From: an uncultured Planctomycetaceae bacterium | Lineage (GTDB): Bacteria; Planctomycetota; Planctomycetia; Planctomycetales; Planctomycetaceae | Assembly (NCBI GenBank): GCA_963813715.1 | Contig: CAWFAK010000015.1 | Location: forward strand, 1-64,000 | Length of the DNA stretch: 64,000 nt | Direction of reading: 5' to 3' | Part shown: in pieces, positions 14,330 to 31,660 of the stretch | Position numbering within the stretch: position 1 is the stretch's first letter | How the letters are laid out: the number at the start of each line of letters is the position of its first letter | Notes under the pieces: generated by a model | Seen by the model: only the letters and a program-made list of their open reading frames with translations | Database searches by the model: none | Told to the model about the DNA's origin: nothing | Position numbers and translations under genes: made by a program

Positions 14330-14701
14330 CTACTCCTGACAGCACGTCCAGCAAATTGAGCTTGGCCACCAGAATGTCCTTGTTGAAGGGCTTCATCAGA
14401 TATTCGTTGGCGCCGGCCTGCAACGCCTGGATCACCTGCTCCCCTGACTCTCCGAAGTCACCATCAGGATCCGGACGGCATCGTAAGCGCGGTCCGCACG
14501 AACCGCGCGAATGAAATCGATGCCGTTCATTTGCGGCATGTTCCAGTCGACCAGCAGCAGTTCGACATCGGGATTCCGTTTCATCTGTTCCAGGGCTTCG
14601 ATGCCATTGGCGGCCTCGAAAACCTCCATGCCGATCTCGCGCAGGATGTGACCGATGATCATCCGGACGGCCCGGGAGTCATCGATGACCAGCGCACGCA
14701 T
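14330..14701 (-). CDS. cheY: Single-domain response regulator, CheY-like (frameshifted; 3' end approximate)
   Basis: MRALVIDDS...LVDWNMP...MVTSE; continues [11 protein letters not shown] in another frame. Confidence 0.85.
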
Positions 14702-14774
14702 TCATCGTCTCCCTCGAGCAAGAGGTGGGGTGTGCTCCCTTCGCTCTCCTGCCGCCTGATTTCAGTCGGACATA

Positions 14775-16380
14775 CTAGTCGTTGAACTGCGAGACCAACT
14801 TCTGCAGATTCAGCGCGATCTTGGAGAGTTCGTCCGCGGAATCCTTGGTGTTGCTGGCGCCCTCGGTCGTGCTCCGCGCGGCCTGGGCGACGCCGGTGAT
14901 GTTCTGAGCGATCTCGTTGCTGCCCCGTGCCGCCTCGGCGACGTTGCGGCTGATTTCGCCGGTCGTCGCCGTCTGCTCCTCGACAGCGCTGGCGATCGTG
15001 TTCTGAATGTCGTTGATCTGGTTGATGATCTTGCTGATCTGGGCGATTGCTTCGACCGCACTCTTGGTGTCGCCCTGAATGGCCTCGATCTTGCGGCTGA
15101 TGTCTTCGGTCGCCTTGGCGGTTTGCTTGGCCAGCTCCTTGACCTCGTTGGCGACGACGGCGAAGCCTTTGCCGGCCTCGCCTGCCCGGGCCGCCTCGAT
15201 GGTGGCGTTCAGAGCCAAGAGATTCGTTTGCTGCGCGATGGACGTGATGACCTTGATGACGTTGCCGATCTCGGCGCTGCTTTCTCCTAGCTTGCCGACG
15301 ATGGCATTGGTCGTTTCGGCAACCTTGACGGCAGTCGTCGCTACCCGGGCGGCTTCGTTGGTGCTGCTTGGCGATCTCCTTGATGCTCGATCCCATTTCC
15401 TCCGTGCCGGTTGCCACGGTGGCCACGTTCTGACTCACTTGTTCGGCGGCGGCGGAAGCGACATTCGCCTGCGTCGCCGTTTCTTCGGCATTGGCCGCCA
15501 TCTGCTGGCTGACGGAAGTCAGTTCCTGTGCGGCACTGGCCAGAACCGTGGCACTCTCGGTGACTTGCCTCAACAGCGTCCGCAGGGCGCTCCGCAGTTT
15601 CACCTGATCGGTCACGTCGGTCGCGTACTTCACAACTTTGAAGGGTCGGCCACACTGATCGAAGATGGGATTGTAGGCCCCTTGGATCCAGACTTCCCGG
15701 CCGTCTTTGCCGAGACGCTTGTACTCGCCCGTTTGATAGACGCCGCGGGCCAGCTTGGCCCAGAATTCCTTGTACTCCGCGCTGCGCCGGTAGGCGTCGT
15801 CGACGAACATGCCGTGATGCTGGCCTTTCACTTCCTCCAGCGTGTATCCCATGGCGTTCAAGAAATTCTCGTTGGCAGTCAGGATCGTGCCATCCAGTTG
15901 AAACTCGATGACGGCCTGGGACTTGCCGATCGCAGCCATCTGCCCGCGATAATCGGCGTCCTGCAGCTTCCGCGCGGTCACGTCGGTGGCATACTTGATG
16001 ATTTTGACCGGGCCGCCCTTTCTCGTCGATGATCGGGGTGTACGCACCCTGGATCCAGACCTCGCGGCCGCCTTTGCCGACTCGTCGGTACTCCCCGGCC
16101 TGACACTCACCGCGACCCAACTTGGCCCAAAACTCTTTGTAGTCATCGCTTTGTCGATAGCCATCTTCGACGAACATGCCATGATGCTGCCCCTGGACCT
16201 CGTCCAGCGTGTAACCCATCGGCTTCAGGAAGTTCTCGTTGGCGGTCACAATCGTGCCGTCGAGCTCAAACTCGATGACGGCCTGAGATTTGTCGATGGC
16301 GGCGAGCTTCCCGCGCAAGTCCGACAGGACCCGAGCAGGATCCGGCTTTCGTGAGTTTTTTCGTGCGGTTTTCAAGACAT
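14775..16380 (-). CDS. Soluble methyl-accepting chemotaxis protein with two PAS domains (frameshifted)
   Basis: Two KSQAVIEF(E/Q)LDGTI.TANENFL PAS repeats; [29 protein letters not shown] signalling hairpin; no TM segment. Confidence 0.92.
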
Positions 16381-16409
16381 CCCTCTTTCGAATGCGACCA
16401 ATTCAGATG

Positions 16410-16876
16410 TCAGGCGTCCTTGGCGTGTTGTAAATGACCACACCCGGTCACATTCACCGTCCGATCGGTGTCGAGAATAAGCAGCAAACAGTCAGGCAAC
16501 TTGTAGGCGCCGCAAATCAGCTGGCGCGCCGTCCCCTGCAACGTCTCGGGCGCCGCTCGAACAGGCTCGCGGGAACTTCCAGCACGTCGCCGATCTCATC
16601 AACCAGCAGGCTGACAGCGCCATCATCGGTTTGAACAACCACGTTCAGCGGCAATTGGTCCGCGGGCCGGTCGCTGAGCTCGAGCCGGCGGCGCAGGTCG
16701 ATCGCTGTCACGATCTGCCCGCGCAAGTTGATCAACCCGCGCACCACAGGCGACGCGAGCGGGACGCGCGTCATCTGCTGGAAGCGGATCACTTCCTGCA
16801 CCCTCAGCACATCGAGGCCGAAGTAGTGACCGTCCACATAAAACGTGCAGTATTGGTGTGAATCCGCCACGGTCAT
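16410..16876 (-). CDS. cheW: CheW coupling protein (frameshifted)
   Basis: FGLDVLRVQEVI...VRGLINLRGQIVTAIDLRRRL. Confidence 0.9.
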
Positions 16877-19189
16877 GCCTGCGTCGTGATGGTGCGCCAC
16901 GGTTCAGCGTGGTCGGGATCGAGCGACCCCAGCATCGCTTCGATATCCAGAAACTCCGTGGCTTGCCCTTGGATGACCGCCGTGAACATCACCCCGCGTC
17001 GGTGAGCCTCTGACCGAGACACGAGCGTTTCCTCGACAATGTCGACGATGCGGTCGACGACCAAGCCGACCTGCCGGCCTCCGCCGGAGTAGACGACGAC
17101 CTGGATGGGATCGACGACCGTCGTTGCCAAGGATTCATTCGAGCGCCGCCGTGAACTTGAGCCCCCATTCCTGGAAGGGGGTCGCTGTCGCAAGGCGCGC
17201 GACACCTTGATCAAGGGCAGAATCTCGTCGCGATACTGAACCACGTCCAGCGGTCCGACTCGCTCGAGCGACGAGAGTGGGAACTCTTCGAGGCGCGCCA
17301 CTTGCGATAACGGAATGGCCCCGCGGCTCCCGTCGTGATTGGCGAATAACAATACCGTTTGGCAATCACCGGTTGGTTCAGCAGCGGGGCTCGCCTTCTC
17401 ACTCAGGGCGCGTTCGCGAACTCCAGAGATAACGTTGGCAGCTTGGGCCAGGCCCAGCACATCCAGGATCAAAGCTACTCGGCCGTCGCCCATGATCGTG
17501 GCGCCCGCAAAGGTGCGGAGATCTTTGAGCTGCTTCTGCAGCGGTTTGACGACGATCTCTTCGGTGTCGTGAATCGCGTCGACAACCAGGCCGAACTGAC
17601 GGTCGTCGGCTTGGAGCACGACGATGTTGGTCGCCACCTGATTATCGTCTGCCGAGTTGGCACCATTTTGATTCTCGTGCCCGTTCGCAGGCGCGTTGTC
17701 GGCGCCCAGCGCGCGGTCGAGGTACACCAAGGGAAGCAGATTTTCTCGCAGGCGGTAGACCGGTGTTCCCTGAATCTGTTCGATCCCCCGTTGCTTCGAC
17801 TCACCCTCGAGTCGGACCAGTTCCAGCAGGCTGACCTGAGGGATTGCGTAGCGCTCGCCCGCGCTCGTGATGGTGAGCGCCGGGATAATGGCTAACGTCA
17901 GAGGGATCTTCATGCGGACGGTCGCGCCGCTGCCCGGGCGACTGTCGATCGTCACCGAGCCGCCGATGCGCTCGATGTTGGTTCGCACCACGTCCATGCC
18001 GACTCCGCGTCCCGAGAACTGCGTTACCTGGTCGGCGGTCGAAAAGCCTGGGAGGAAGATCAGGTTCACCAGGTCGCGGTCGCTCAGGCGATCGGCCTGC
18101 TCCGGAGTCACAAGCTTGGCCTTGATGGCCTTGGCGCGGATTCGCTGGGGGTCGATGCCGGCGCCGTCGTCGTTAATCTCGATGATCACCTTGCCGCCTT
18201 CGTGAAACGCACGGAGCGCGAGCCGACCTTCCTCCGCCTTGCCCCGCGCAGGCGCTCTCGGGGGGCTCGATGCCGTGGTCAACTGCATTGCGCACCAAGT
18301 GCGTGAGCGGATCGCGGATGGCTTCGATGATCGTCTTGTCCAGCTCGGTTTCCTGCCCCTCGAGGTCGATGTGCACTTGCTTGGCACAGGCCACGGCCAA
18401 GTCGCGAACGACGCGGGGAAACTTGCTCCAGATTGTGCCGATCGGCTGCATCCGCGTCTTCATCACGCCTGCCTGCAACTCGGTCGTGAGCAGGTTCAGT
18501 CGTTGCACGGTGCGGACGAAGGGCGTGTTTTCCTGAGAGGCGCTGTACTGCATGATCTGGTTGCGAGCCAGCACCAGCTCTCCCACCAGAGTCATCAGCT
18601 TATCCAGCAGGTTCACATCCACCCGGATGGAGGTGTCCGCGATCGCGGGCGTGCGAGACTCCGCCGCGTCATGGAGCGAAGACTGCGTCATCACCAAGGA
18701 GGTCGGCCCACTCGATGACGGCGCGGGCGGACGAATTTCCGCGACCTCCGGCATAACGGGGATCGTTGGCAGCTTGGCGATGGGCGTTGCCATCGGCGAC
18801 ACGGTAGGAGCCGCCACCGCGCAACCGATCCAGAGTCTCAATCAGCGCCGAGAAATCGCCGTCGCCGTCGGTCTCGGAACGTTCGACCGACTCGAGCATC
18901 GTTCGCACCGCGTCCACGACCTTCAGCAGGGCGCTGGCGATCGGCGGCGTTGAAGACCAGTTCTCCCGCGCGCAACTGGCTGAGCAGACTCTCCGCGGCG
19001 TGAGCGACGGCCTGCAGCTTCTGCAAGCCGAGAAAGCCCGCGGTTCCCTTGACCGTATGCAACGTGCGAAACACGCGGCCCAGGGTCTCGCGCTCGGTCG
19101 GCTCCTTTTCCAGCGTTACCAGGTCAACATCGAGCTGCGCCAGGTTCTCATTCGTTTCAATCAGAGAACTCGCGGATCACTTCGTTCAT
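16873..19189 (-). CDS. cheA: Chemotaxis histidine kinase CheA with two CheW-like domains (frameshifted)
   Basis: HPt FRTLHTVKG; IRVDVNLLDKLMTLVGELVLARNQ; HLVRNAVDHGIE; GRGVGMDVV; C-terminal CheW domains. Confidence 0.93.
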
Positions 19190-19197
19190 GAGAGCGC

Positions 19198-21200
19198 TTA
19201 CCGACTCGCAACGACCAGCTCGTCGATGATCGTCCGAACGATCGCGGCTGGAAAACTCTTGTCGCAGACCGCGGCCACTCCCAGCCGGCGGACGGTTTCG
19301 AGCTTGGTCGGGTCCGTCTCCGTCGTAACCATGATGATCGGCACCGACGCCGTGAGTGGGTTTTGCTTCAGATAACCCACGAGCCCCGGTCCGTCCATGA
19401 GAGGCATGTTGTAATCGGTGATGATCAAGTCGAACGATTCTTGGGCAACCGCGGCGACAGCCTGAGCCCCGTCGGTCGCGTCGACAAATTGAGTCAGTCC
19501 CATGCCCCCCAGCACGTTGCGCACGTGCAACCGCGCGGCCGCGCTGTCGTCCACAATCAGCACGCGCAGCTTGCCGCGATCTTTGGCAGGCGCGTCCGGC
19601 TGTGCAACGTTCGGCTGTGCGACGTCTGACACGACCCGCAATGCACTCACCAACTGCTCAGGAGTGAAGGGCTTCTTGACGAGGACCGTGTTGGCGCACT
19701 TGCTCAGCGAGCCCGCGTCCGAACTTTCGGATTCACTGGAGATGAGCACAAAGCCCGGCGGCGGACCGTCGGCTTCCGCGCGCACCTGTTGGGCCAGATC
19801 CACTCCGGTCATGTCCGGCAAATGCAGCGCACTGACGATGGCATGCGGTCGCTCAGCCCGCACCGACCGCAGAGCGTCCTCGCCAGAAGCCGCCGCGACG
19901 ATGTTTTGCACGCCTTGGACCTGCAAATACTTTTGAATGATCCCAGAGAGCGTGCGCGACGGCTCGACCAGCAAAATTTTGAGGGACGAGAGTGGCGTCC
20001 CGGCGGACGCCGACCTCAGGCCGAACATCTGCTGAGTCGCGCCCCCGGCAGTGGCCCGGCTCGTCTCAGGGCTGGAACCTAGCAAGGACCATTGCCCGGT
20101 CGAGGACGTCCGCCCAGGGGGCCCGAGCCCTGCCGGAGCCGTCTTGCTGGTGTCGGGCAGGTTGGCCGCGATTGCCTCCAGCGTCTGCACGACTTCGGTC
20201 ATTGTCTGGAAGCGGCCAGCTGGCTCCTTGGCCATCATCCGTTGAAAGGCCGCATCCAGTTCGGCCGGCACATCCTGCCGACTGTCCGCCAGTACCGGAA
20301 TCGGATCGAGCTTGTGCTTGAACATGATCGCCATCAGGGAGTCACCCTGATACGGGGGGCGGCCCAGCAGCAGGAAATGGAGCGTGGTGCCCAGGCTATA
20401 GATGTCGGACCGATGATCGATCTCAGTCGAATCCATCGCCTGCTCAGGGGGCATATAGTCGACGGTGCCGAGAATCGAACCGGCCTGAGTAATCGAGCCG
20501 CCGGCGGCGGACCCCGCGGCATTCGCCAGGCGGGCCAGTCCAAGATCGGTCACCTTGACGGTGCCCGCGCCATCCCGCAGCAGGTTGGCGGGCTTGATGT
20601 CGCGATGAATGATTCCCTGACTGTGGGCGTACTCCAATCCGCGCGGCTTGCAGGACGCAGTCGATGGCTACAGACACACTCAGCGGCCCTTGCTTCGCGA
20701 GCAGGGACGCCAGGTCCTGGCCTTCGACATACTCCATCGCTAGGAAGTGGCCGACTTCGGCTTCGTCCGCATCGTAGGCCATCACAATGTTCGGATGAGA
20801 AAAACAGGCGATGGTCTCCACCTCGCGCTGGAAACGCTGTACGAACGACTCGTCCTTCGCCAGGCTGCGCGACAGGACCTTCAGCGCCACGATTCGCTTC
20901 ATGCGGCGGTGGCGGGCCTTGAAGACCGTGCCCATGCCCCCCGCGCCCAGCCGATCGAGCACGTCGTAGTTGCCGATCCGCAACTCCGCGTGCCGGCGAT
21001 TGGAGGCCGCTTCGGCCTGGTAGGGCGTCAAAATTCCAGCAGACACCAGCGACTGCGCCAGAGAGAATCCGCTTGCCTTGGGATTCGATGCCGCCTGAGA
21101 CGCCCGCTCGAAGTCCTCTGCCGATCAGGAGTTCGCTGGCCTTCAGACAGTCCAGAAGTTCCTGGGCGGCAAAGCCTTCGGTAATTTGAGTTCTTTCCAT
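19198..21200 (-). CDS. Ser/Thr protein kinase fused to two receiver (REC) domains (frameshifted)
   Basis: [26 protein letters not shown] and GTVDYMPPEQ; then REC1 (ILLVEPS...IVSALHLPDMTG) and REC2 (VLIVDDS...ITDYNMP); stop 8 bp before the cheA start. Confidence 0.9.
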
Positions 21201-22557: not shown

Positions 22558-22662
22558 AAGCCGGCAGACCCGTGAGCGGAGCCGTCGCCAACTGGGCGTA
22601 GGACTTTTTGTGCGGCCGTCCGCCCTTTGGCCCCCGTCCGCCGCTCCCGGTACAATCGCGGC

Positions 22663-22867
22663 ATGCCCTTCATCGCCAAACTGAACAAAGCCACTCTTTG
22701 GCTAGGCACCGCAAACGCTGCTGGGGTGCGGACGCTTACCGATCACGATGGCGCGGCCGTCTTCCGAAGCGCCGCAGACGCGGGTTGCGATCGCCAAATT
22801 GCCGGAAGTGTACCAGCACTTCGAGCTGACCTTCCTGGTCGAGCCGATGGGGCTCTCGGAGTTTTGA
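22663..22867 (+). CDS. Small hypothetical protein, likely leaderless (probably frameshifted)
   Basis: TACAAT-N6-ATG; MPFIAKLNKATLWLG...AAVFRSAADA. Confidence 0.45.
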
Positions 22868-22923
22868 GGCACAAACGGCCAACCGGTTAGCGCGGTTCTT
22901 TGGGTGCCCGCTACAATGGCTGT

Positions 22924-23136
22924 ATGAGCCAGCCCAAGCGACTTCCCGTTCCGCTTCCATTCGGGGATGGATGGGTCCTGGTGAGGCTGCCAGAGCATCC
23001 AGCGGCACCCGACCAATACTGGTCTCATGAGTCGGGATGGGTTCTGAACGCCGGGGCGGCAAAGTCGTTCGCGCTCAGTGGGGAAGCGCGCGACTACATG
23101 CAAGCCAACTCGCACCGGATGGACGCGCCAGGCTGA
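22924..23136 (+). CDS. Small hypothetical protein, likely leaderless
   Basis: TACAAT-N6-ATG; MSQPKRLPVPLPFGDGWVLVRL...YWSHESGW. Confidence 0.5.
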   Translation: MSQPKRLPVPLPFGDGWVLVRLPEHPAAPDQYWSHESGWVLNAGAAKSFALSGEARDYMQANSHRMDAPG

Positions 23137-23283: not shown

Positions 23284-23796
23284 GTGGGCAATAAAATCAT
23301 CGGTCCATACTGGGCTTGCCGGGGGTGGGCGCATTTTCGTGGTTATTTCAAACTGTCCCACTACCGGGCTTTGAGGCAAAGCCAGGGCCGGCCGACCTTC
23401 TGTTGTGCAGAAGCCGATGCCAAGAGCCGCACCGAAAACCTCGCACTGCATCGCCAAATCGAGGTGGAGCGAGCCGACGTCAATCAGCAACGCGATGCCC
23501 TGGAGCAGGAGCGGCGACAAATCGCCGCCGAACGCAACCGTGACCCGATCATTGCCGAATCGATTCAGCTGGCAGCTGGTCTGATCGCGGCCGTTCTGCC
23601 GTTGCTCGTCTGCCTGTACTTGCTCCGGGGACTCTTCGACAAGCCCGACCAGGACGCGCTCGCTGAACTCCTGGTCGAGGACCTGGTCTCGAGACAGCCT
23701 CTGCTAGGCAACTCAGCTCCCCTCAATTTGCCAGAGACGGGTGGCAATCCTCGGTTGCCCGCCGGTCCTCCCGCAGAAGAGCGCCCCACGGACTGA
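23284..23796 (+). CDS. Coiled-coil + single TM hypothetical protein (start uncertain, possibly 5'-truncated)
   Basis: Heptad-rich ERADVNQQRDALEQERRQIAAER followed by hydrophobic IQLAAGLIAAVLPLLVCLYLL; N-terminal ~40 aa look non-coding. Confidence 0.65.
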   Translation: MGNKIIGPYWACRGWAHFRGYFKLSHYRALRQSQGRPTFCCAEADAKSRTENLALHRQIEVERADVNQQRDALEQERRQIAAERNRDPIIAESIQLAAGLIAAVLPLLVCLYLLRGLFDKPDQDALAELLVEDLVSRQPLLGNSAPLNLPETGGNPRLPAGPPAEERPTD

Positions 23797-23895: not shown

Positions 23896-24172
23896 ATGAA
23901 CCAGTCCGAACTCGAGCGTGCGGTGGCTCGTGCCACCGGCGAATCGCGCCGCTTCGTCAAGCGATTCGGCTTCAGCCTCGTCGATGACGAACCAAAGCCT
24001 GGCGACGAACTGACGCTGGCCATCGATTGCCCGGGCTGCGGCGCAGTCTGTGATGGTTGCAATTTGGGCCAAGGGACTCGAGTGCCCTCGGTGCGATGCC
24101 GTCTATCCGGTCTCCGTCGACGAGCTCTACGTCCTCGACAATTCGCACCGGCCACTGATCGCCTGCGCCTGA
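23896..24172 (+). CDS. Small hypothetical protein with CxxC motifs (3' end uncertain, frameshifted)
   Basis: AAGGAG RBS; MNQSELERAVARATGESRRFVKRFGFSLVD...IDCPGCG. Confidence 0.6.
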
Positions 24173-24220: not shown

Positions 24221-24439
24221 ATGCAGTTGTTTTTCATCAACAATGACGGCGGCGGCTTCGCGGACACGATCGAGGTCGCCGACAGCACGTCGATCGCCCA
24301 GCTCTTTGAGCAGCGTGTCCCGCACGGCAAACCGGCTGACTACTTGATTCGCGTCAATCGGCAGTCGGTTACCGCCAACCAGATGTTGCGGGAAGGCGAC
24401 CGCGTCAGTGTCACGCCGACGAAGATCGAGGGCGCCTGA
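24221..24439 (+). CDS. Ubiquitin-like (ThiS/MoaD beta-grasp) protein, 72 aa, C-terminus -KIEGA
   Basis: Size and YLIRVN...LREGDRVSVTP pattern match ThiS/MoaD-type Ubls; AGGA upstream; adjacent to E2, JAB and E1 genes. Confidence 0.85.
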   Translation: MQLFFINNDGGGFADTIEVADSTSIAQLFEQRVPHGKPADYLIRVNRQSVTANQMLREGDRVSVTPTKIEGA

Positions 24440-24523: not shown

Positions 24524-25584
24524 ATGCAGACCCAGCACAGAATCTTGCTACGAACGGCGGAGCGGATTTCATCCCATTTGCAGCGCAGCCGAGCCGCCCC
24601 ATTCTCAATTGAGCTTCCCGAAGCGGATTGGAACTACGCCCAAGCGCTTGCTGCGCCAACTCGATATCTGCCGACAACGCGCTTGGTCAAATGTTGCTGC
24701 GCTTTTGGAGGACCGCCTAGAGCGGGCCTTGGAACGCTGCACCGAGCGATTCCAAGAAATCCGCCGCCGAGTCTCGCGACAGGGCTCACCCCTTTTCATT
24801 CAGCGGACCCGTGAGATCTTCCGTGACCTGGTGGCTCTGGCGGATGAATTCGAGGGGGTATCGATCGACGGGCCAGACCAAACGGTGCTCAGTCACCACC
24901 GAAGCGATCGTCCTGGAGGAAATCAACCTCGGGCCCTTCGAGATCCGCTTGCACTGGGACCGGATCGGTGACCGACGCCCGTATGACGTCATTGCCCTAA
25001 ATCCGAATCCGGCCGGGGAGTCGAGCGACACCACACATCCCCACGTCAAAGGCGAGCAACTCTGCGAAGGGGATGGCCGTCAAGCCATTGAGAGTGCCCT
25101 CCGGGGCGGTCGCCTGCTCGACTTCTTCCAACTCGTGAGCCGGATCCTCGAGACCTACAACGCCGGGAGCGCCTACGTGGCGCTGTCGGAGTGGAATGGC
25201 AGCCCGTGCAGTGATTGCGGCGACGTGGTCTCCGATGAGGAACGGTATACGTGCGATCGATGTGGCGACAGCTTGTGCCACAACTGCCTCTGCTCCTGTG
25301 TCCGCTGTGAGGCGTTCTGCTGCCATGACTGTACGAATTACTGCCGACAGTGCGAGGAATCGATCTGTTCGGGCTGCCAAGAGACTTGCCGGCATTGCGC
25401 GCGATCGCTGTGCCGTTCCTGCATTTCCGAAGACGGCCTCTGCGAAGAGTGCCAGGAGGAACACGATGCACGCACACTCGATGACGATGAAAACCAATGC
25501 CCGCCCTTGGAAACCGAGACGCTTGCTCCGCCGGCCACGGGAGCTGCGGACCCGCAAGCAGCGACGGCCGCGATTGCGGTTTAG
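24524..25584 (+). CDS. Prokaryotic E2/UBC-like protein with helical N-terminus and C-terminal poly-CxxC zinc-binding array (two frameshifts, ~24645 and ~24885)
   Basis: [16 protein letters not shown]...NPNP...[12 protein letters not shown] (HPN-like motif plus Cys at 25063), then [14 protein letters not shown] and 10 CxxC motifs. Confidence 0.75.
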
Positions 25585-26206
25585 TCCCACGGCGTGGGCA
25601 AAGTTACTGTTCGTGCGCGACTGCGGCCCGACCGAGGTGGGTGGGTTCGGGATCGCCGCGGAGGACGATCTGCTGTACGTCGAAGACATTCGGATGGTCA
25701 AACAAGCCTGCACGACGATCTCAGTCACGTTCGACGACGTGGCCGTCGCTGAGTTCTTCGACGAGCAGATCGATGCCGGGCGGCGACCCGAGCGGTTCGG
25801 GCGGATTTGGATTCACACCCACCCCGGGGTCTCGGCTGAACCCAGCCACGTCGATGAAGAGACTTTTGGTAGAGTGTTCGGTCCTTGCGACTGGGCAGTG
25901 ATGTTCATTCTCGCGCATGGCGGCGAAACGTACTGTCGCCTGCGATTCCGGGCTGGGCCAGGGGGTGCGTGGGAGATTCCGGTGGAAGTCGGTTTTGAGC
26001 GTGATTTCGCGGGCTCGAATAGCGACGAGTGGTCCGCGGAATACGAGGCCACTGTCCGCAGACCGGAAGCCCTGCTCGCCAATTCGCCCGAGGGTCAATT
26101 TGGCGCCGACCTTTCAGCAGTGGCCGACAGTCACGATCTTTTCGACAACTTTTGGGACACTTTTGACTGGGAAAGGGAACTCGACCTCCATGAACACGCG
26201 ATTTGA
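25466..26206 (+). CDS. JAB/MPN+ metalloprotease (deubiquitinase-like)
   Basis: AGGAGGA RBS; TEVGGFG (catalytic Glu) and [16 protein letters not shown] (HxH-x7-SxxD). Confidence 0.88.
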
Positions 26207-26849
26207 ACGTCAGCAAGCTCTCGTACCACAAGAACGGCTCACGGCCGTGACGGCCACTGTGATCGGAGTCGGCGCGGTCGGCCGCCAACTAGCGCTGCAC
26301 CTTGCCTCAATTGGAGTCCGTCGGTTGCAACTAGTCGACTTCGATCACGTCGAGGCCACCAACGTCACAACGCAGGGCTATTTCGCGGGCGACATTGGCC
26401 AACTGAAGGTTCAGGCAACGCGCCGAGCCATCGAGCTGATCGATCCCTCGATCTCTGTTGAAACGCACGCTGACCGCTTCCGCCCGAAACACCAAGTGGC
26501 CGACGTGCTGTTCTGCGCGGTCGACAGCATTTCGGCTCGGGCCTCGATTTGGCGGGCCGTCGAAAACCGCTGTCGCTTTTGGGCCGATGGGCGCATGCTT
26601 GGAGAAACGATTCGCGTGCTATGCGCCGCAGACCAAGCAGGGCGCGAACACTACGGATCGACGCTGTTTGCGCAGTCCGAAGCCCAAACTGGTCAGTGCA
26701 CGTCGCGAAGCACGATCTACGCGGCCGGCATCGCGGCCGGCCTGATTGTCCATCAATTCTCGCGTTGGCTGAGGGATCTGCAGATCGACGTCGATACGAC
26801 CGTGGACCTGTTGGCTGGAGATTGGGCGGCGACAATCGCGGCGTGTTGA
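26190..26849 (+). CDS. E1-like ThiF/MoeB-family adenylyltransferase
   Basis: [33 protein letters not shown]; candidate thioester Cys in TGQCTSRST; start overlaps the JAB stop. Confidence 0.9.
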
Positions 26850-27167: not shown

Positions 27168-28610
27168 TCGTCCTCCACTCGCGATGCTTCACGCACGTCG
27201 TCGCAGGAAAACGCTCGCATCTGCGTCTTGCCGCACTCCCTACAAACGGCCTCGATTTCCACGACATTGGCTGTCGCCCCGGCACAATCGAAGCGGCTGA
27301 ACTCCACTGGCGCACCGCACTCGCATTTTGCGCGCAGAGTTCCGGGTCAATTTGATGCCAAGCTCATCCAAGTCGAGTTTTTGCTTTCTTTCTGACCGGT
27401 CGACCTCGCCTCGCGACGCCACGTCCACGTCACTCCGCCTTGGCGCGTCGGCCGCACGTTTGACGGCCCGATCTGCCTCGCGCTCTTTTGAACCATTTCC
27501 GCATGAAAGTAAAGGACGCGAAGCAACACACCTTGCTTCAGGGCGTCTTCCGGATCGGCCCACAAGTCTTGGATCGCCTCTCGAAGCGGACGGAAGTATC
27601 GGTGAAGAAGAGCCAGGGGGACTCCTCCGAGCCACGGTTGACCAAGATAAAGGAGTTCAAAGATTCCTGCTCGTCCCCCGAAAGCGGCGGATCGATCATG
27701 TTCAGAAAGTTTTGCATCTGCAGCCCAATGCACTGACCGCTGTATCTCAGCGATTCGAACACTAACTCAAGCAAAACATCGCGCACGACCGCCCGGTCAA
27801 TTGGGCCCGGCTTCGCCTTACGTTTTGAGATTTGGTGGACAATTCCGTCGCGATTCTTGAAGAACCAGCGATCGAAATCTTCTACGGAATCGTCCAGGTG
27901 AGGGCGAAGGCGTCCAGAAGGCGCCCTTCCACTTCTTGCCTCGTCTCATCGCTAATCGGTACCTCCGCCGGACCGAGGTCGAATAGCGCGAGTCGCAGGA
28001 TTCTTGCCGCGTCCTCAGTTTTCAACCGGGTCACATCGAACGGATTGCGTTTCGCCGCGTCCACGAGGCCAAGCTGGATAAGATCCGCGGTGGATGGTTC
28101 TGTCAAATCACGCGCTTTGGCTGAGTCACGACCGGCCTTGAGGAGGTCGGCGACCGACCATTGCTTGCCCCTTCCCAAGGCATTGAGTCCAAGGTCGTCA
28201 GGCAGGATGTTGGAAAAATCAACGCCGAATCGCTCGTGTCCGAGCACGAGTAAATCCACCCGGCGGGAGAAGGTTCGATCGAGGGCTTCCTGGACACTTG
28301 GGCCGTACTGGACAAGGAGACGCATCAGGTTGTAGGTGTAGCGCTGTTCTCCAGTCAGATTTTCGGTGCGACTGCGGATCGCCAAACCGCCGAGCGACGC
28401 GTTCAACAAAAAGTCCGGCAGATTGTCGGGGTAAAGACGTCTGACACCCTTGTACGACATGGCCTCGAGCGAGACGCAGTAGTCTTCCGGTAAATCTCCG
28501 CGGATCTGCTCCGACGGGCGCCACTGGTACACGGAGCGATCCATATCGAGGACCGCTGACCCGACGGTGGGGCGAGTAATTTGTTGGGACTCACGGGCCT
28601 CAACTGTCAT
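27164..28610 (-). CDS. Large hypothetical protein with C-terminal CxC...CxxC motif (several frameshifts)
   Basis: ORFs 27882-28640, 27538-27786, 27347-27733 and 27240-27635 join into one helical protein ending ...KCECGAP...VCRECGK. Confidence 0.55.
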
Positions 28611-28901
28611 TGTGCCCCAAATTGCTGAATTGCCTGTCATTATCTTCCTCTCGTAATAAACTGTCGCCTCGACTCGCGCTTGCTCGTCGCGCGAGAAGGC
28701 AAGTCGACAGCTTGCTCATAGCAGAATCCGCGAAGGCGCGCAACACGAACTTGCCGTCATTCGCTCGGATTATTCGGCACGTCCGGATTAACCGGGCCGG
28801 CCGTCCGGTTTTCCCGAATGGTGTCGAGGGCAGCGCTCCGCGGTTAGACCATTCGCATGTGCGAGCGGCTGCGGACATGCGCCCCTCCAAGGAAACTCCG
28901 A

Positions 28902-29818
28902 ATGCCGCAGTCTAAAAGTCAAACGGAATTGCGTACCCATGTGGCGACCTATCACGATCTCCAATCATTCGTCGATGCCTTCGCCAACGGCCACCTCAAT
29001 TTGCTCATCGTCTACGGAAGGCCGGGCATCGGGAAAAGCCATACAATACGGGAGCGCGTCGGCAAACGAGCATTTACGATCAATGGGACGGCCAGCCCGT
29101 TCGGGATCTACATTGCCGCGTATCAGCACCGCGACGAGCCGATCGTTCTCGACGACATTGATGGGCTCACCGCCAGCCCACAGGGGGTCCGGCTACTGAA
29201 GGCTTTGACGCAAAGTGATCCCGAAAGGACCGTGTCTTGGGAAACTCAGGCGGCCGTTCTGAATCGGGAAGAGATCCCGACTTCGTTCCGAACCCGAAGC
29301 CACGTCGCAATCCTTGCGAATTGTCCATTTGCCTCTGACGATGCACGCGCCTTAGAAGACAGAGGCCATGTGCTAGTCTTCGAGCCCTCCGCCATCGAAG
29401 TGCATCAACAGGCCAGCAAGTGGTTCTGGGATCAAGAGGTCTTCGACTTCGTTGCCTGTTATTTGCATCTCATGCCCCTTCATTCGTTTCGCACGTACGT
29501 GAACGCGTGGGAGCGAAAGAACGCAGGATTGCCCTGGCAATCTGCCGTGCTAGACCGATGCCTGTCGGGATTGACATTGGAGGTTGCCAAGCTCCGCTCC
29601 GATCCGCAGTTCCAATCGGAGGAGGCGCGCGTCAAGCGTTCGTTCAGCGGAGATTGGGATGTCGCGCGACCTACTTCAACCACGTCAAACGACTTCAGCC
29701 TAAGCAAGATGTCCCGAAGATCGAGTTGTCGCACCACCCGCCCCCACAGCCACCAGCTCCGCCAATCGGCCTCATCGACTTGATCACGCGTCGATACCGG
29801 CGGTTGGGCCGCGGTTAG
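28902..29818 (+). CDS. P-loop/AAA-like ATPase (frameshift near 29640)
   Basis: Walker A GRPGIGKS, Walker B IVLDDID, and ALEDR (Arg-finger-like). Confidence 0.75.
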
Positions 29819-30083
29819 ACTTTTAGACTCACTTCCGTCAGCAACCGATCAGACCTACTCCGAGCGTCCCAACCCAAGTCATTCCCCAGAATCTTTCCTG
29901 GGCTTCCACTCTCCTCTTCCGGCCGGTCGCATCTGGCCACTTCCCTGCAGCGCCAGGGTTCGAGCCTGGCACTCGAGCGGCTCGTCCGGTTTTCCCGTAA
30001 TGGGTGAACCAAGGAATTCAGCCGCTTGTTTTTCTACGTCTAAGAGCTGTCAAGCGGTGATCCCGGCTGGGCAAGGAGGCCCA

Positions 30084-30340
30084 ATGTCAAACAACAACGA
30101 AAACGTCAAGCTGACGGCTCGCGAAATCGCCGCCGCCTTCGACACCAATGCAGGGCCGACCGTTCCCGCCATTCTGACCGTCGAAGAGGCGGCCGCACTC
30201 CTTCGTGTCCCGATCAAAACAATCTACGACTGGAGCTCGCGTGGCCTTCTCAAGGGCTGTTGCCGCAAAGTGGGCAAGCACTTGCGATTCTTCCGGGACC
30301 GCCTGCTCCTAAAAGTCTTCAACGAGGGCCTGAGCTGCAC
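30084..30340 (+). CDS. Helix-turn-helix excisionase-like protein (3' end uncertain)
   Basis: AAGGAGG RBS; ILTVEEAAALLRVPIKTIYDWSSRG...KVGKHLRF. Confidence 0.85.
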
Positions 30341-31445
30341 ATGGAACCTAAGCAACCACGCAACCAATCCGAAGCTCATCGGTGATGTTGTCCGAATCTT
30401 CTTGAAGGGCCCCACCTGGTGGGCCAATTGTCAGGTGAACGGCCGGCAAAGGCGGCGCTCACTGCGCACGACCAGTAAGAAAGAGGCGCGGCGCCGCGCG
30501 CTGCTGCTTGAAGCGGACATCCTTCGCGGCACACTGCCAAACGAGGGCCACGCCGGTAGTGTCGCCTCAACGATCGAAGCGTACCGATCCTATCTCAAGG
30601 CCGAAAACCGCGCCTCGAAGACGCTGGTGAAATACAACGGCGTCCTGAACCGCGTCCATGAAACTGGCCGAATCTCTGAAGGTCAGGACGATGGCCGGCA
30701 TCGACTTGAGATTCGTCGACGCTTACCGCAAGCAAAGGACCGAGGATGAGGCGGCTGCCAAGACCATCTACAACGAGACCATGATCGTCCGGCAACTGGT
30801 CAACTTTGCCAAATCGCGCCGATTGCTGACGAGCGATCCATTGGCCGGGTTGAAGCTCCGTGAACCGAAGCCGGCCTCTCAGCCCTGCTGGACCCAAGAT
30901 GAGGTGAATCGGATTCTCGAAATGGCGAATCCGGCGCATCGGGCCGCGTTCACGATCCTCGCCGACACGGGACTTCGCATCGGCGAGTTGCAGTACCTGA
31001 CATGGGACGACGTCGACTACATCAACAACGTGCTTCACGTACGCCCCAAGGAGGGTTGGAAACCAAAGACGGGGGATCGACGCGCCGTGCCGATCAGCCC
31101 TCGGGTTCGAGCCGTTCTCGAAGGCCTCCCGCAACAGTCCTCATGGGTCGTTACTGCGCCGCCGTCGCCCACCTACCCGGCGGGGGATCATCAGGTCTCC
31201 GAGCGACGGTTACTGAAGGCGCTCAAGGCAGGTCCTGAACAAGCTGGGCCTGCCGGGCCATTTACACACCTTTCGTCACGCGTTCATCTCACACGGCGCT
31301 GACGTCCGGAATTCCAGAAGCAGTTGTCCGAGCGTGGGTCGGGCACGTCGATGCCGACGTGATCCGCCTCTACACCCACATTGCCGACGCGACGTCGCAA
31401 GCGGCCATGCGCCGGCTCACCGCGACGCCAGGTCAATCGATCTAG
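30341..31445 (+). CDS. Tyrosine recombinase/integrase (frameshifted)
   Basis: TGLRIGEL (R), KPKTG (K), HLHTFRHAF (HxxR) and VGHVDADVIRLYTH (H, Y) across frames; N-terminal arm-binding-like QRRRSLRTTSKKEA. Confidence 0.9.
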
Positions 31446-31561: not shown

Positions 31562-31571
31562 CCTCGCGAGG

Positions 31572-31660
31572 CGGAGAGAGGGGGATTCGAACCCCCGGTC
31601 CCGATTTCTCGAGACACGGCATTTCCAGTGCCGCACAATCGGCCGCTCTGTCATCTCTCC
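31572..31660 (-). tRNA. tRNA-Ser (anticodon GGA), CCA not encoded
   Basis: Reverse complement GGAGAGA...TCTCTCC-G; anticodon arm CGGCA-CTGGAAA-TGCCG; long variable arm; GGTTCGAATCC T-loop. Confidence 0.95.

Follow-up and report, generated by a model that had tools for sequence, protein, structure and literature searches.

A ten-CxxC array fused to an E2-like domain in a ubiquitin-like operon of Planctomycetota

Within the 64,000-nucleotide stretch of DNA from an uncultured Planctomycetaceae bacterium that was analysed here (hereafter, the window), an E2-like domain is fused to an array of ten CxxC pairs and encoded together with a ubiquitin-like protein (Ubl), a putative JAB/JAMM metallopeptidase and a ThiF-type E1 (Table 1). 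This E2-array cassette is real, conserved and structurally unusual, and represents a variant of the bacterial Ubl-E2-JAB-E1 operons that were already known (excerpts of PMC1779556, PMC11601596, PMC11601603, PMC7159879, PMC4197634 and PMC11354881). Among the readings of the array, the binding of five Zn ions has good standing and a role as substrate adaptor is plausible, the RING and copy-number readings being weak.

Table 1. Features of the E2-array cassette and its surroundings (window positions)
Feature	Position	Strand	Remarks
Coiled-coil and hydrophobic-segment protein	23284..23796	+	no family; in 16/116 loci
Small conserved protein	23896..24172	+	directly upstream of Ubl; frameshifted near 24071 here
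Ubl beta-grasp protein	24221..24439	+	72 aa; invariant Gly71, then Ala and a variable extension
E2-array gene	24524..25584	+	N-terminal helical hairpin/coiled coil, E2 (UBC) fold as modelled, array, tail
E2 active-site motif HPHV-x5-C	25036..25065	+	putative catalytic Cys at 25063-25065
Ten-CxxC array	25207..25452	+	predicted to hold five treble-clef Zn sites in an overlapping chain; net acidic
Acidic tail	25453..25584	+	low model confidence; overprinted on the JAB ribosome-binding site and first 39 codons
JAB/JAMM metallopeptidase	25466..26206	+	E...HxH-x7-S-x2-D; start behind AGGAGG
ThiF-type E1	26190..26849	+	single domain; ThiF E 1e-23; invariant Cys170 (26697-26699)
HTH_17 excisionase-like and tyrosine integrase frames	30000..31302	+	broken into overlapping frames here
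tRNA-Ser(GGA)	31570..31660	-	likely integration site

The E2-array gene and its operon

As assembled, the E2-array gene contains two one-base insertions relative to its homologs, at approximately 24642 and 24887-24891. Since a near-identical soil contig (one differing letter in 223) has no second insertion, nearby genes are similarly split and the homologs are intact 352-aa proteins, both insertions are most likely assembly errors. Programmed frameshifting was considered and rejected on account of the intact homologs. Full-length work used a homolog (L004) that is 94% identical. The assembly seems prone to indels elsewhere in the window too: at 14659-21200, genes for chemotaxis and for Ser/Thr kinase-response regulators are broken up over multiple frames.

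Canonical E2 enzymes carry an HPN-like motif followed by the catalytic cysteine. The HPHV-x5-C motif found here has His in the position of the canonical Asn, and its H, P, H and C are invariant among 110 and 58 aligned homologs. The modelled domain matches several solved E2s (VIA; Z 6.5-7.2, rmsd 3.6-4.6 A over 111-125 residues), among them UBE2S, E2-25K and UbcH10 (113-125 residues), which supports its assignment to the UBC fold; Foldseek alone returned no significant match for this domain, and a sequence search with it gave no PDB match. The protein has no match in Pfam, NCBIfam, PADLOC or PHROGs, the lone PADLOC E2 match among homologs being that of a viral member (L092, E 0.04), and the Prok-E2 Pfam model matched none of 58 E2 domains. 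A wide fold search with the full-length model returned coiled coils only. One homolog of 733 aa (P0122) holds two full E2-array units, one behind the other.

The acidic tail shares 119 nt with the JAB gene, and its first acidic residues are specified by the AGGAGG that precedes the start of JAB (25466). JAB lies in the +1 frame relative to the E2-array gene in 86 of 88 loci, the overlap exceeds 30 nt in 63 of the 64 loci with a ribosome-site ATG, and the tail is absent from a subfamily that retains all ten pairs. The tail is probably a by-product of this gene overlap, and the arrangement of the two reading frames suggests translational coupling. The tail and a recurrent C-terminal motif of the homologs were rejected as functional evidence because they overlap the JAB frame.

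The gene order Ubl, E2-array, JAB, E1 is kept in all 116 loci as far as the contigs extend, with the four genes cleanly present in 59. The Ubl gave weak ThiS and Ub-Mut7C matches, below cut-off. The JAB protein matched Prok-JAB at E 0.006, likewise below cut-off; its metal ligands are intact, and its motif, with the spacing read from the sequence, agrees with the JAMM consensus (E...HxH-x7-S-x2-D). Cys170 of the E1 is present in 41/41 sequences, and this E1 has no structural-Zn CxxC pairs, unlike ThiF/MoeB and BilD. The small protein preceding Ubl was found in 65 of 116 loci, in a few of them downstream of E1, and gains a C-terminal Zn ribbon in the clade of the window. Its N-terminus presumably resembles HU/IHF helices (a library search gave no match), and it is a candidate substrate or regulator.

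From the conserved catalytic residues and by comparison with the Bil system, a cysteine-based conjugation cascade (excerpts of 10.1101/2023.09.26.559546), it is highly probable that the operon encodes a complete cysteine-based Ubl conjugation cascade. The JAB peptidase would trim Ubl after Gly71, the ThiF-type E1 would adenylate Ubl and then take it on Cys170, and the E2 would receive it on the HPHV-x5-C cysteine and pass it to a target lysine.

Conservation and predicted fold of the array

The array comprises CSDC (25207), CDRC (25252), CHNC (25276), CVRC (25297), CHDC (25321), CRQC (25342), CSGC (25366), CRHC (25387), CRSC (25411) and CEEC (25441-25452), separated by spacers of 11, 4, 3, 4, 3, 4, 3, 4 and 6 residues. 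All ten pairs share a single frame, the ORF 24811-25584. The fusion to the E2-like domain noted by the sequence-only reading is real. The claimed division of the central eight pairs into CxxC-x4-CxxC-x3 units also holds, but with x6 after the fourth unit. In a six-frame search of the 7.49-Mb genome, at least six CxxC within 90 aa occur in just three stop-free segments, and ten CxxC in two, namely the window gene and its paralog on contig C7. The scarcity of such segments and the invariance of the cysteines argue that the array is not a product of chance: 20/20 Cys are invariant in an alignment of 59 arrays chosen for the ten-pair Cys pattern. In a set of 238 arrays that were also chosen for this pattern, each of the 20 ligand columns shows Cys at 99-100%.

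Extra cysteines beyond the invariant 20 are frequent, and the median net charge is -11. The conserved non-Cys residues concentrate in finger 1, which adjoins E2, the distal fingers being variable; mean entropy is 2.95 bits in the array versus 1.34 in the C-terminal part of E2. dN/dS amounts to 0.50 at array non-Cys codons and 0.57 in the distal part, versus 0.24 for the E2 core (25 pairs chosen on E2 divergence, several of them saturated). Both array values are below 1 and agree equally with relaxed surfaces and with diversity of targets. The array persists with ten pairs in a subfamily that has lost both coiled coil and tail and includes a viral contig (L092). Members of this subfamily (L092 and P0287-P0301, one of them viral) are 217-227 aa long, and their array is not acidic.

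Most homologs carry the array: among the best matches listed for an E2-only profile, 125 of 151 E2 domains have at least eight pairs and 101 exactly ten. The 26 domains with six or fewer pairs were judged by eye to be truncated or frameshifted, save P0203, a possible array-less form, and P0243, which looks chimeric. Apart from the same two proteins, the short E2 matches (82 found, 23 read by eye) were fragments or belonged to the array-bearing subfamily. A word-based search, which is weak for such variable sequence, turned up no standalone array in a set of 75 candidates (52-168 aa).

A pool of 319 domains from all sources, thinned to 90% identity and found in part with array-bearing queries, includes 254 standard ten-pair arrays, four expanded ones (12, 12, 14 and 14 pairs), 28 with tails shorter than 85 aa and 33 others. 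Across homologs the pair number ranges from 8 to 16 and changes rarely, by whole 15-aa units. The four expansions correspond to four changes on the tree, L119 and L106 are each one unit short, and the 16 pairs of L047, a member dropped in thinning, reflect recent tandem repetition of 45 bp (3.6 copies at 93%). Among multi-copy genomes, with frameshifted copies set aside, intact paralogs differ in unit number in one of ten (G300), and paralogs down to 41% E2 identity still have ten pairs.

Modelled alone, the array reaches pLDDT 92 and consists of hairpin after hairpin with short helical turns, plus a helix at one end. Of 48,161 chains searched, the twelve that match it best are fingers of FYVE or Rab-effector type (Z 3.3-4.8); one of them was deposited under a RING title (Z 3.6) and is the Slp4 finger. 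The CARP2 FYVE-type domain superposes on the array with an rmsd of 1.3 A over 47 columns and the RIM finger with 2.4 A over 48, the Pex12 RING appearing at rank 50 (Z 2.1). The scores are modest, with Z at most 4.8 and no Foldseek E <0.001 for what is a predicted model. Among solved structures, the closest in sequence is the MID1 B-box (E 5e-4); Pfam Siva is touched by 11 of 59 arrays, below cut-off (best E 1.4e-4, profile positions 110-159), and Fer4 matched once (E 0.08).

The array begins with CxxC-x11-CxxC-x4-CxxC, within the B-box type 1 spacing of CxxC-x7-12-CxxC-x4-CxxC. The terminal His-His ligand pattern of a B-box type 1 is present in just 14/319 arrays, and the Pfam matches are below cut-off. 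The basic R(R/K)HHC motif, which marks lipid binding in FYVE fingers, occurs in 0/319. A RING ligand set with conserved His (C3HC4, C3H2C3 or C4HC3, consensus from excerpts of PMC11354881) was not found in the array; loose RING patterns match 86/319 and 32/319 arrays via scattered His. The modelled fold points, at a modest level, to a FYVE-type cross-brace rather than a canonical RING. The RING identity first proposed fares poorly, since FYVE-type fingers head the fold lists and the array lacks both a conserved His ligand and a long central helix, whereas the cross-brace arrangement with about five Zn is supported by the pair count, the fold matches and the pattern of joint losses.

The second Zn site of FYVE and PHD fingers resembles a treble clef in its own right and overlaps with the first one (excerpts of PMC4999995). 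Repeating this overlap step along the array gives the pairing 1+3, 2+5, 4+7, 6+9 and 8+10, and it is likely that five overlapping treble clefs, paired in this way, form a chain. Pairs 8 and 10 were lost jointly, with pair 9 kept, in 13 homologs, accounting for at least seven changes on a FastTree phylogeny of the E2 domain; in contrast, one homolog lacks pair 8 only, four have damage to pair 10 only and 254 are intact. This set was hand-picked, with truncated, frameshifted, length-variant and ambiguous rows excluded, and well-supported branches hold just one independent pair (eight on all branches). A Fisher test gives p 6e-18 and was not relied on, as kin are not independent. Pairs 2 and 5 were lost together in L106; exceptions to joint loss are P0246 and, with one Cys lost in each without its partner, P0053 and L021. 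The 8/10 co-loss fits the interleaved chain and is supportive, not significant. No solved structure of a five-Zn poly-treble-clef fold was found in the structure search.

Possible roles of the array

We favour, at perhaps an even chance, the reading that the array is an acidic docking arm in cis that holds the substrate and serves as the adaptor half of an E3. Five treble clefs, each overlapping the next, would form a rigid rod in which each beta-knuckle pair shares a Zn with a helical pair about 19 residues on, so that one 15-aa unit would add one Zn. The arm would be non-catalytic and would not provide RING-type activation: the conserved first finger may pack on E2 and the variable distal fingers grip the substrate, with binding set by surface residues rather than unit number, and the likeliest kind of target would be basic and nucleic-acid-binding. 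FYVE and Rab-effector fingers, the top fold matches, are binding modules, which speaks for a docking arm. By analogy, SIVA1 is a substrate adaptor for RAD18 (excerpts of PMC4068132). No standalone RING-pattern gene was found in 44 loci of at least 8 kb. Counting against a docking arm, Bil E2s work without an E3 or an array (excerpts of PMC11601596), so an adaptor is not required.

The main rival, possible if doubtful, is that the array docks E1 or stabilises E2, replacing the lost Zn site of E1 and serving charging rather than the choice of targets. The E1 of the cassette lacks CxxC pairs, whereas in BilD a Zn-rigidified loop binds E2 (excerpts of 10.1101/2023.09.26.559546); moreover, the conserved array residues adjoin E2, and the array is kept when other parts of the protein disappear. 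Yet four to five fingers are kept where finger 1 alone is conserved, the E1 is highly conserved (70% mean column identity) and the distal array is not, and expansions to 12-16 pairs are tolerated.

RING domains are recognised by a His ligand, a long central helix and an E2-binding hydrophobic residue. It is improbable that the array is a true RING- or B-box-like E3 that activates E2~Ubl allosterically, the strong form of the sequence-only reading: cross-brace chemistry, the B-box sequence matches, the fusion to E2 and the lack of a separate RING gene agree with it, but FYVE-type fingers rank far above the Pex12 RING, neither the His ligand nor the long helix is conserved, and the array has an acid in place of the hydrophobic residue. 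It is very improbable that the array gates E2 by sensing metal or redox state or by storing metal (Zn or Fe-S), a role for which twenty invariant and frequent extra cysteines and the tolerated changes in unit number can be cited; the strict spacing and the treble-clef matches favour structural Zn, Fer4 matched the single time mentioned above, and the conserved gene clusters scanned contain no metal-resistance neighbours. There is scarcely any likelihood that unit number is a specificity code, a ruler for different targets: forms with 8, 12, 14 and 16 pairs, at least four independent expansions and the 45-bp gain of L047 bear out the proposal that whole-unit changes occur, and its other part, a specificity module, finds no support, as such changes are rare (254/319 at ten, four expanded, one of ten multi-copy genomes) and dN/dS is 0.5.

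The docking-arm reading has a bolder, unlikely extension: a bacterial ubiquitin system, complete in itself and carried by mobile elements, with the E3 built into the E2 as a poly-treble-clef rod that can be lengthened. It would tag DNA-binding proteins of basic charge and pass them on to the Ycf46-like AAA ATPase module encoded alongside, much as ubiquitin does for p97. If true, the rod would show in living form how two-Zn fingers of the FYVE, B-box and SIVA kinds lengthen, with one 15-aa unit for each added Zn.

Mobile setting, distribution and relation to known systems

The cassette is likely carried by an integrative element beside tRNA-Ser. A tRNA gene is present in 9 of 32 related loci and in every one of them is tRNA-Ser; the adjoining genes have four anticodons (GGA, TGA, CGA and GCT). 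A genome search found no attachment-site repeat of the tRNA end, and some related loci carry serine recombinases instead. By a rough gene caller, the 32 loci encode a 320-aa protein without family (19 loci), an HU/IHF-like small protein (18), an AAA ATPase that we label Ycf46-like (15) and DUF2997 (7); the clade of the window has no AAA block at that place. In fuller elements (L126, L135, L091 and L027), a 125-aa protein, DUF2997 and an AAA ATPase of about 495 aa lie upstream of Ubl, and the block continues with the 320-aa protein, an 80-aa protein and the HU-like small protein; the literature search returned no paper tying this block to a Ubl system.

Between E1 and the integrase, the window (27882-29783) holds a minus-strand gene of 252 aa and a small AAA-type ATPase at a lower GC of 0.57-0.59. 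Near the left end of the element (22588-23124), about 500 bp match contig C4 at up to 91%, forming a separate repeated or mobile segment. The same genome has a second cassette copy (G000:C7:877989-881424; 76% DNA identity, ten pairs, E1 frameshifted). In one related contig (L040), the operon is surrounded by a perfect inverted duplication, probably an assembly artefact.

The E2-array family is large and unannotated. It was detected in 16 of the 401 genomes sampled from the phylum and in 12 of 20 sampled from the host family, frequently more than once per genome, and the close loci belong to Planctomycetaceae and Pirellulaceae. The E2-only profile collected 2263 clusters at 50% identity, of which the best 150 were inspected, and one Atlas cluster of the family has 2546 members and no Pfam. 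The operon is present on two viral contigs; a plasmid search gave no match, a phage search gave a single weak one (E 0.08), and no RNA holder of the family was seen among the matches listed.

Operon type 6d, equated here with the PRTRC system (TIGR03736 match), is approached by the cassette E1 through PRTRC_ThiF (E 2e-8), at 34 bits versus a cut-off of 144.75, and no other PRTRC model matches. As described in the pertinent section of Iyer 2006 (PMC1779556), type 6d shares a standalone Ubl, a Cys-bearing E2, JAB and E1 with the cassette, and that section has no Cys array on E2. A close parallel in parts and gene order is with BilABCD types I and II (excerpts of Hor et al. 10.1101/2023.09.04.556158 and Chambers et al. 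10.1101/2023.09.26.559546), which also have four genes, Cys-based E1 and E2, a Ubl with Gly and a JAB-trimmable extension, and no separate E3. However, the cassette E1 is a 219-aa single ThiF domain, whereas Bil E1 has IAD-AAD-CYS and structural Zn; the Ubl is a single 72-aa domain, the E2 has a coiled coil and a Zn array, the cassette lies in a conserved integrative-element module, and no PADLOC or NCBIfam model fits.

Tri-ligase systems with a RING E3, for which Planctomycetes are named among the carriers, share Ubl, E1, E2, JAB and a treble-clef partner (excerpts of PMC4197634 and PMC7159879); their RING is a separate gene (excerpts of PMC7159879), whereas the finger chain here is fused and FYVE-like. 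The Bub system also has a bacterial Ubl, E2, JAB and E1, but is described with Tyr/Ser oxyesters, gene fusions and DUF6527 (excerpts of PMC11601596), whereas in the cassette both cysteines are invariant, the genes are separate and no DUF6527 was found among the neighbours scanned. Compared with the FYVE-type fingers of CARP2/RFFL, RIM, Slp4 and Rabphilin, which share the start CxxC-x11-CxxC-x4-CxxC, the array would bind about five Zn instead of two, is acidic and has no lipid motif. The spacing of the first three pairs is common to the MID1 B-box type 1 and the SIVA1 C-terminal Cys-rich region, both of which act in ubiquitin transfer; the matches are below Pfam cut-offs, the B-box His is not conserved, and the likeness may be convergent. 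The literature search found neither an E2 fused to a multi-Zn chain nor this element described; Burroughs 2011 and 2012 with their supplements, reportedly surveys covering Planctomycete operons and treble clefs, were outside its reach and may include the architecture.

By analogy, the cassette may act in Bil-like defence (defence role of Bil: excerpts of 10.1101/2023.09.04.556158) or in element-driven protein control tied to the AAA block, mobile Ubl operons having been proposed as selfish modification systems (excerpts of PMC3417536). An E3 is lacking from the bacterial Ubl operons that have been studied to date, and for Bil, target recognition is said to await study (excerpts of 10.1101/2023.09.04.556158). 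A removable module on the E2 lets deletion or swap address target choice directly. From the array one would also expect an interleaved Zn fold that can be repeated, with versions of 4, 5, 6, 7 and 8 sites in nature, and that would extend beyond the two-Zn fingers which the array matches.
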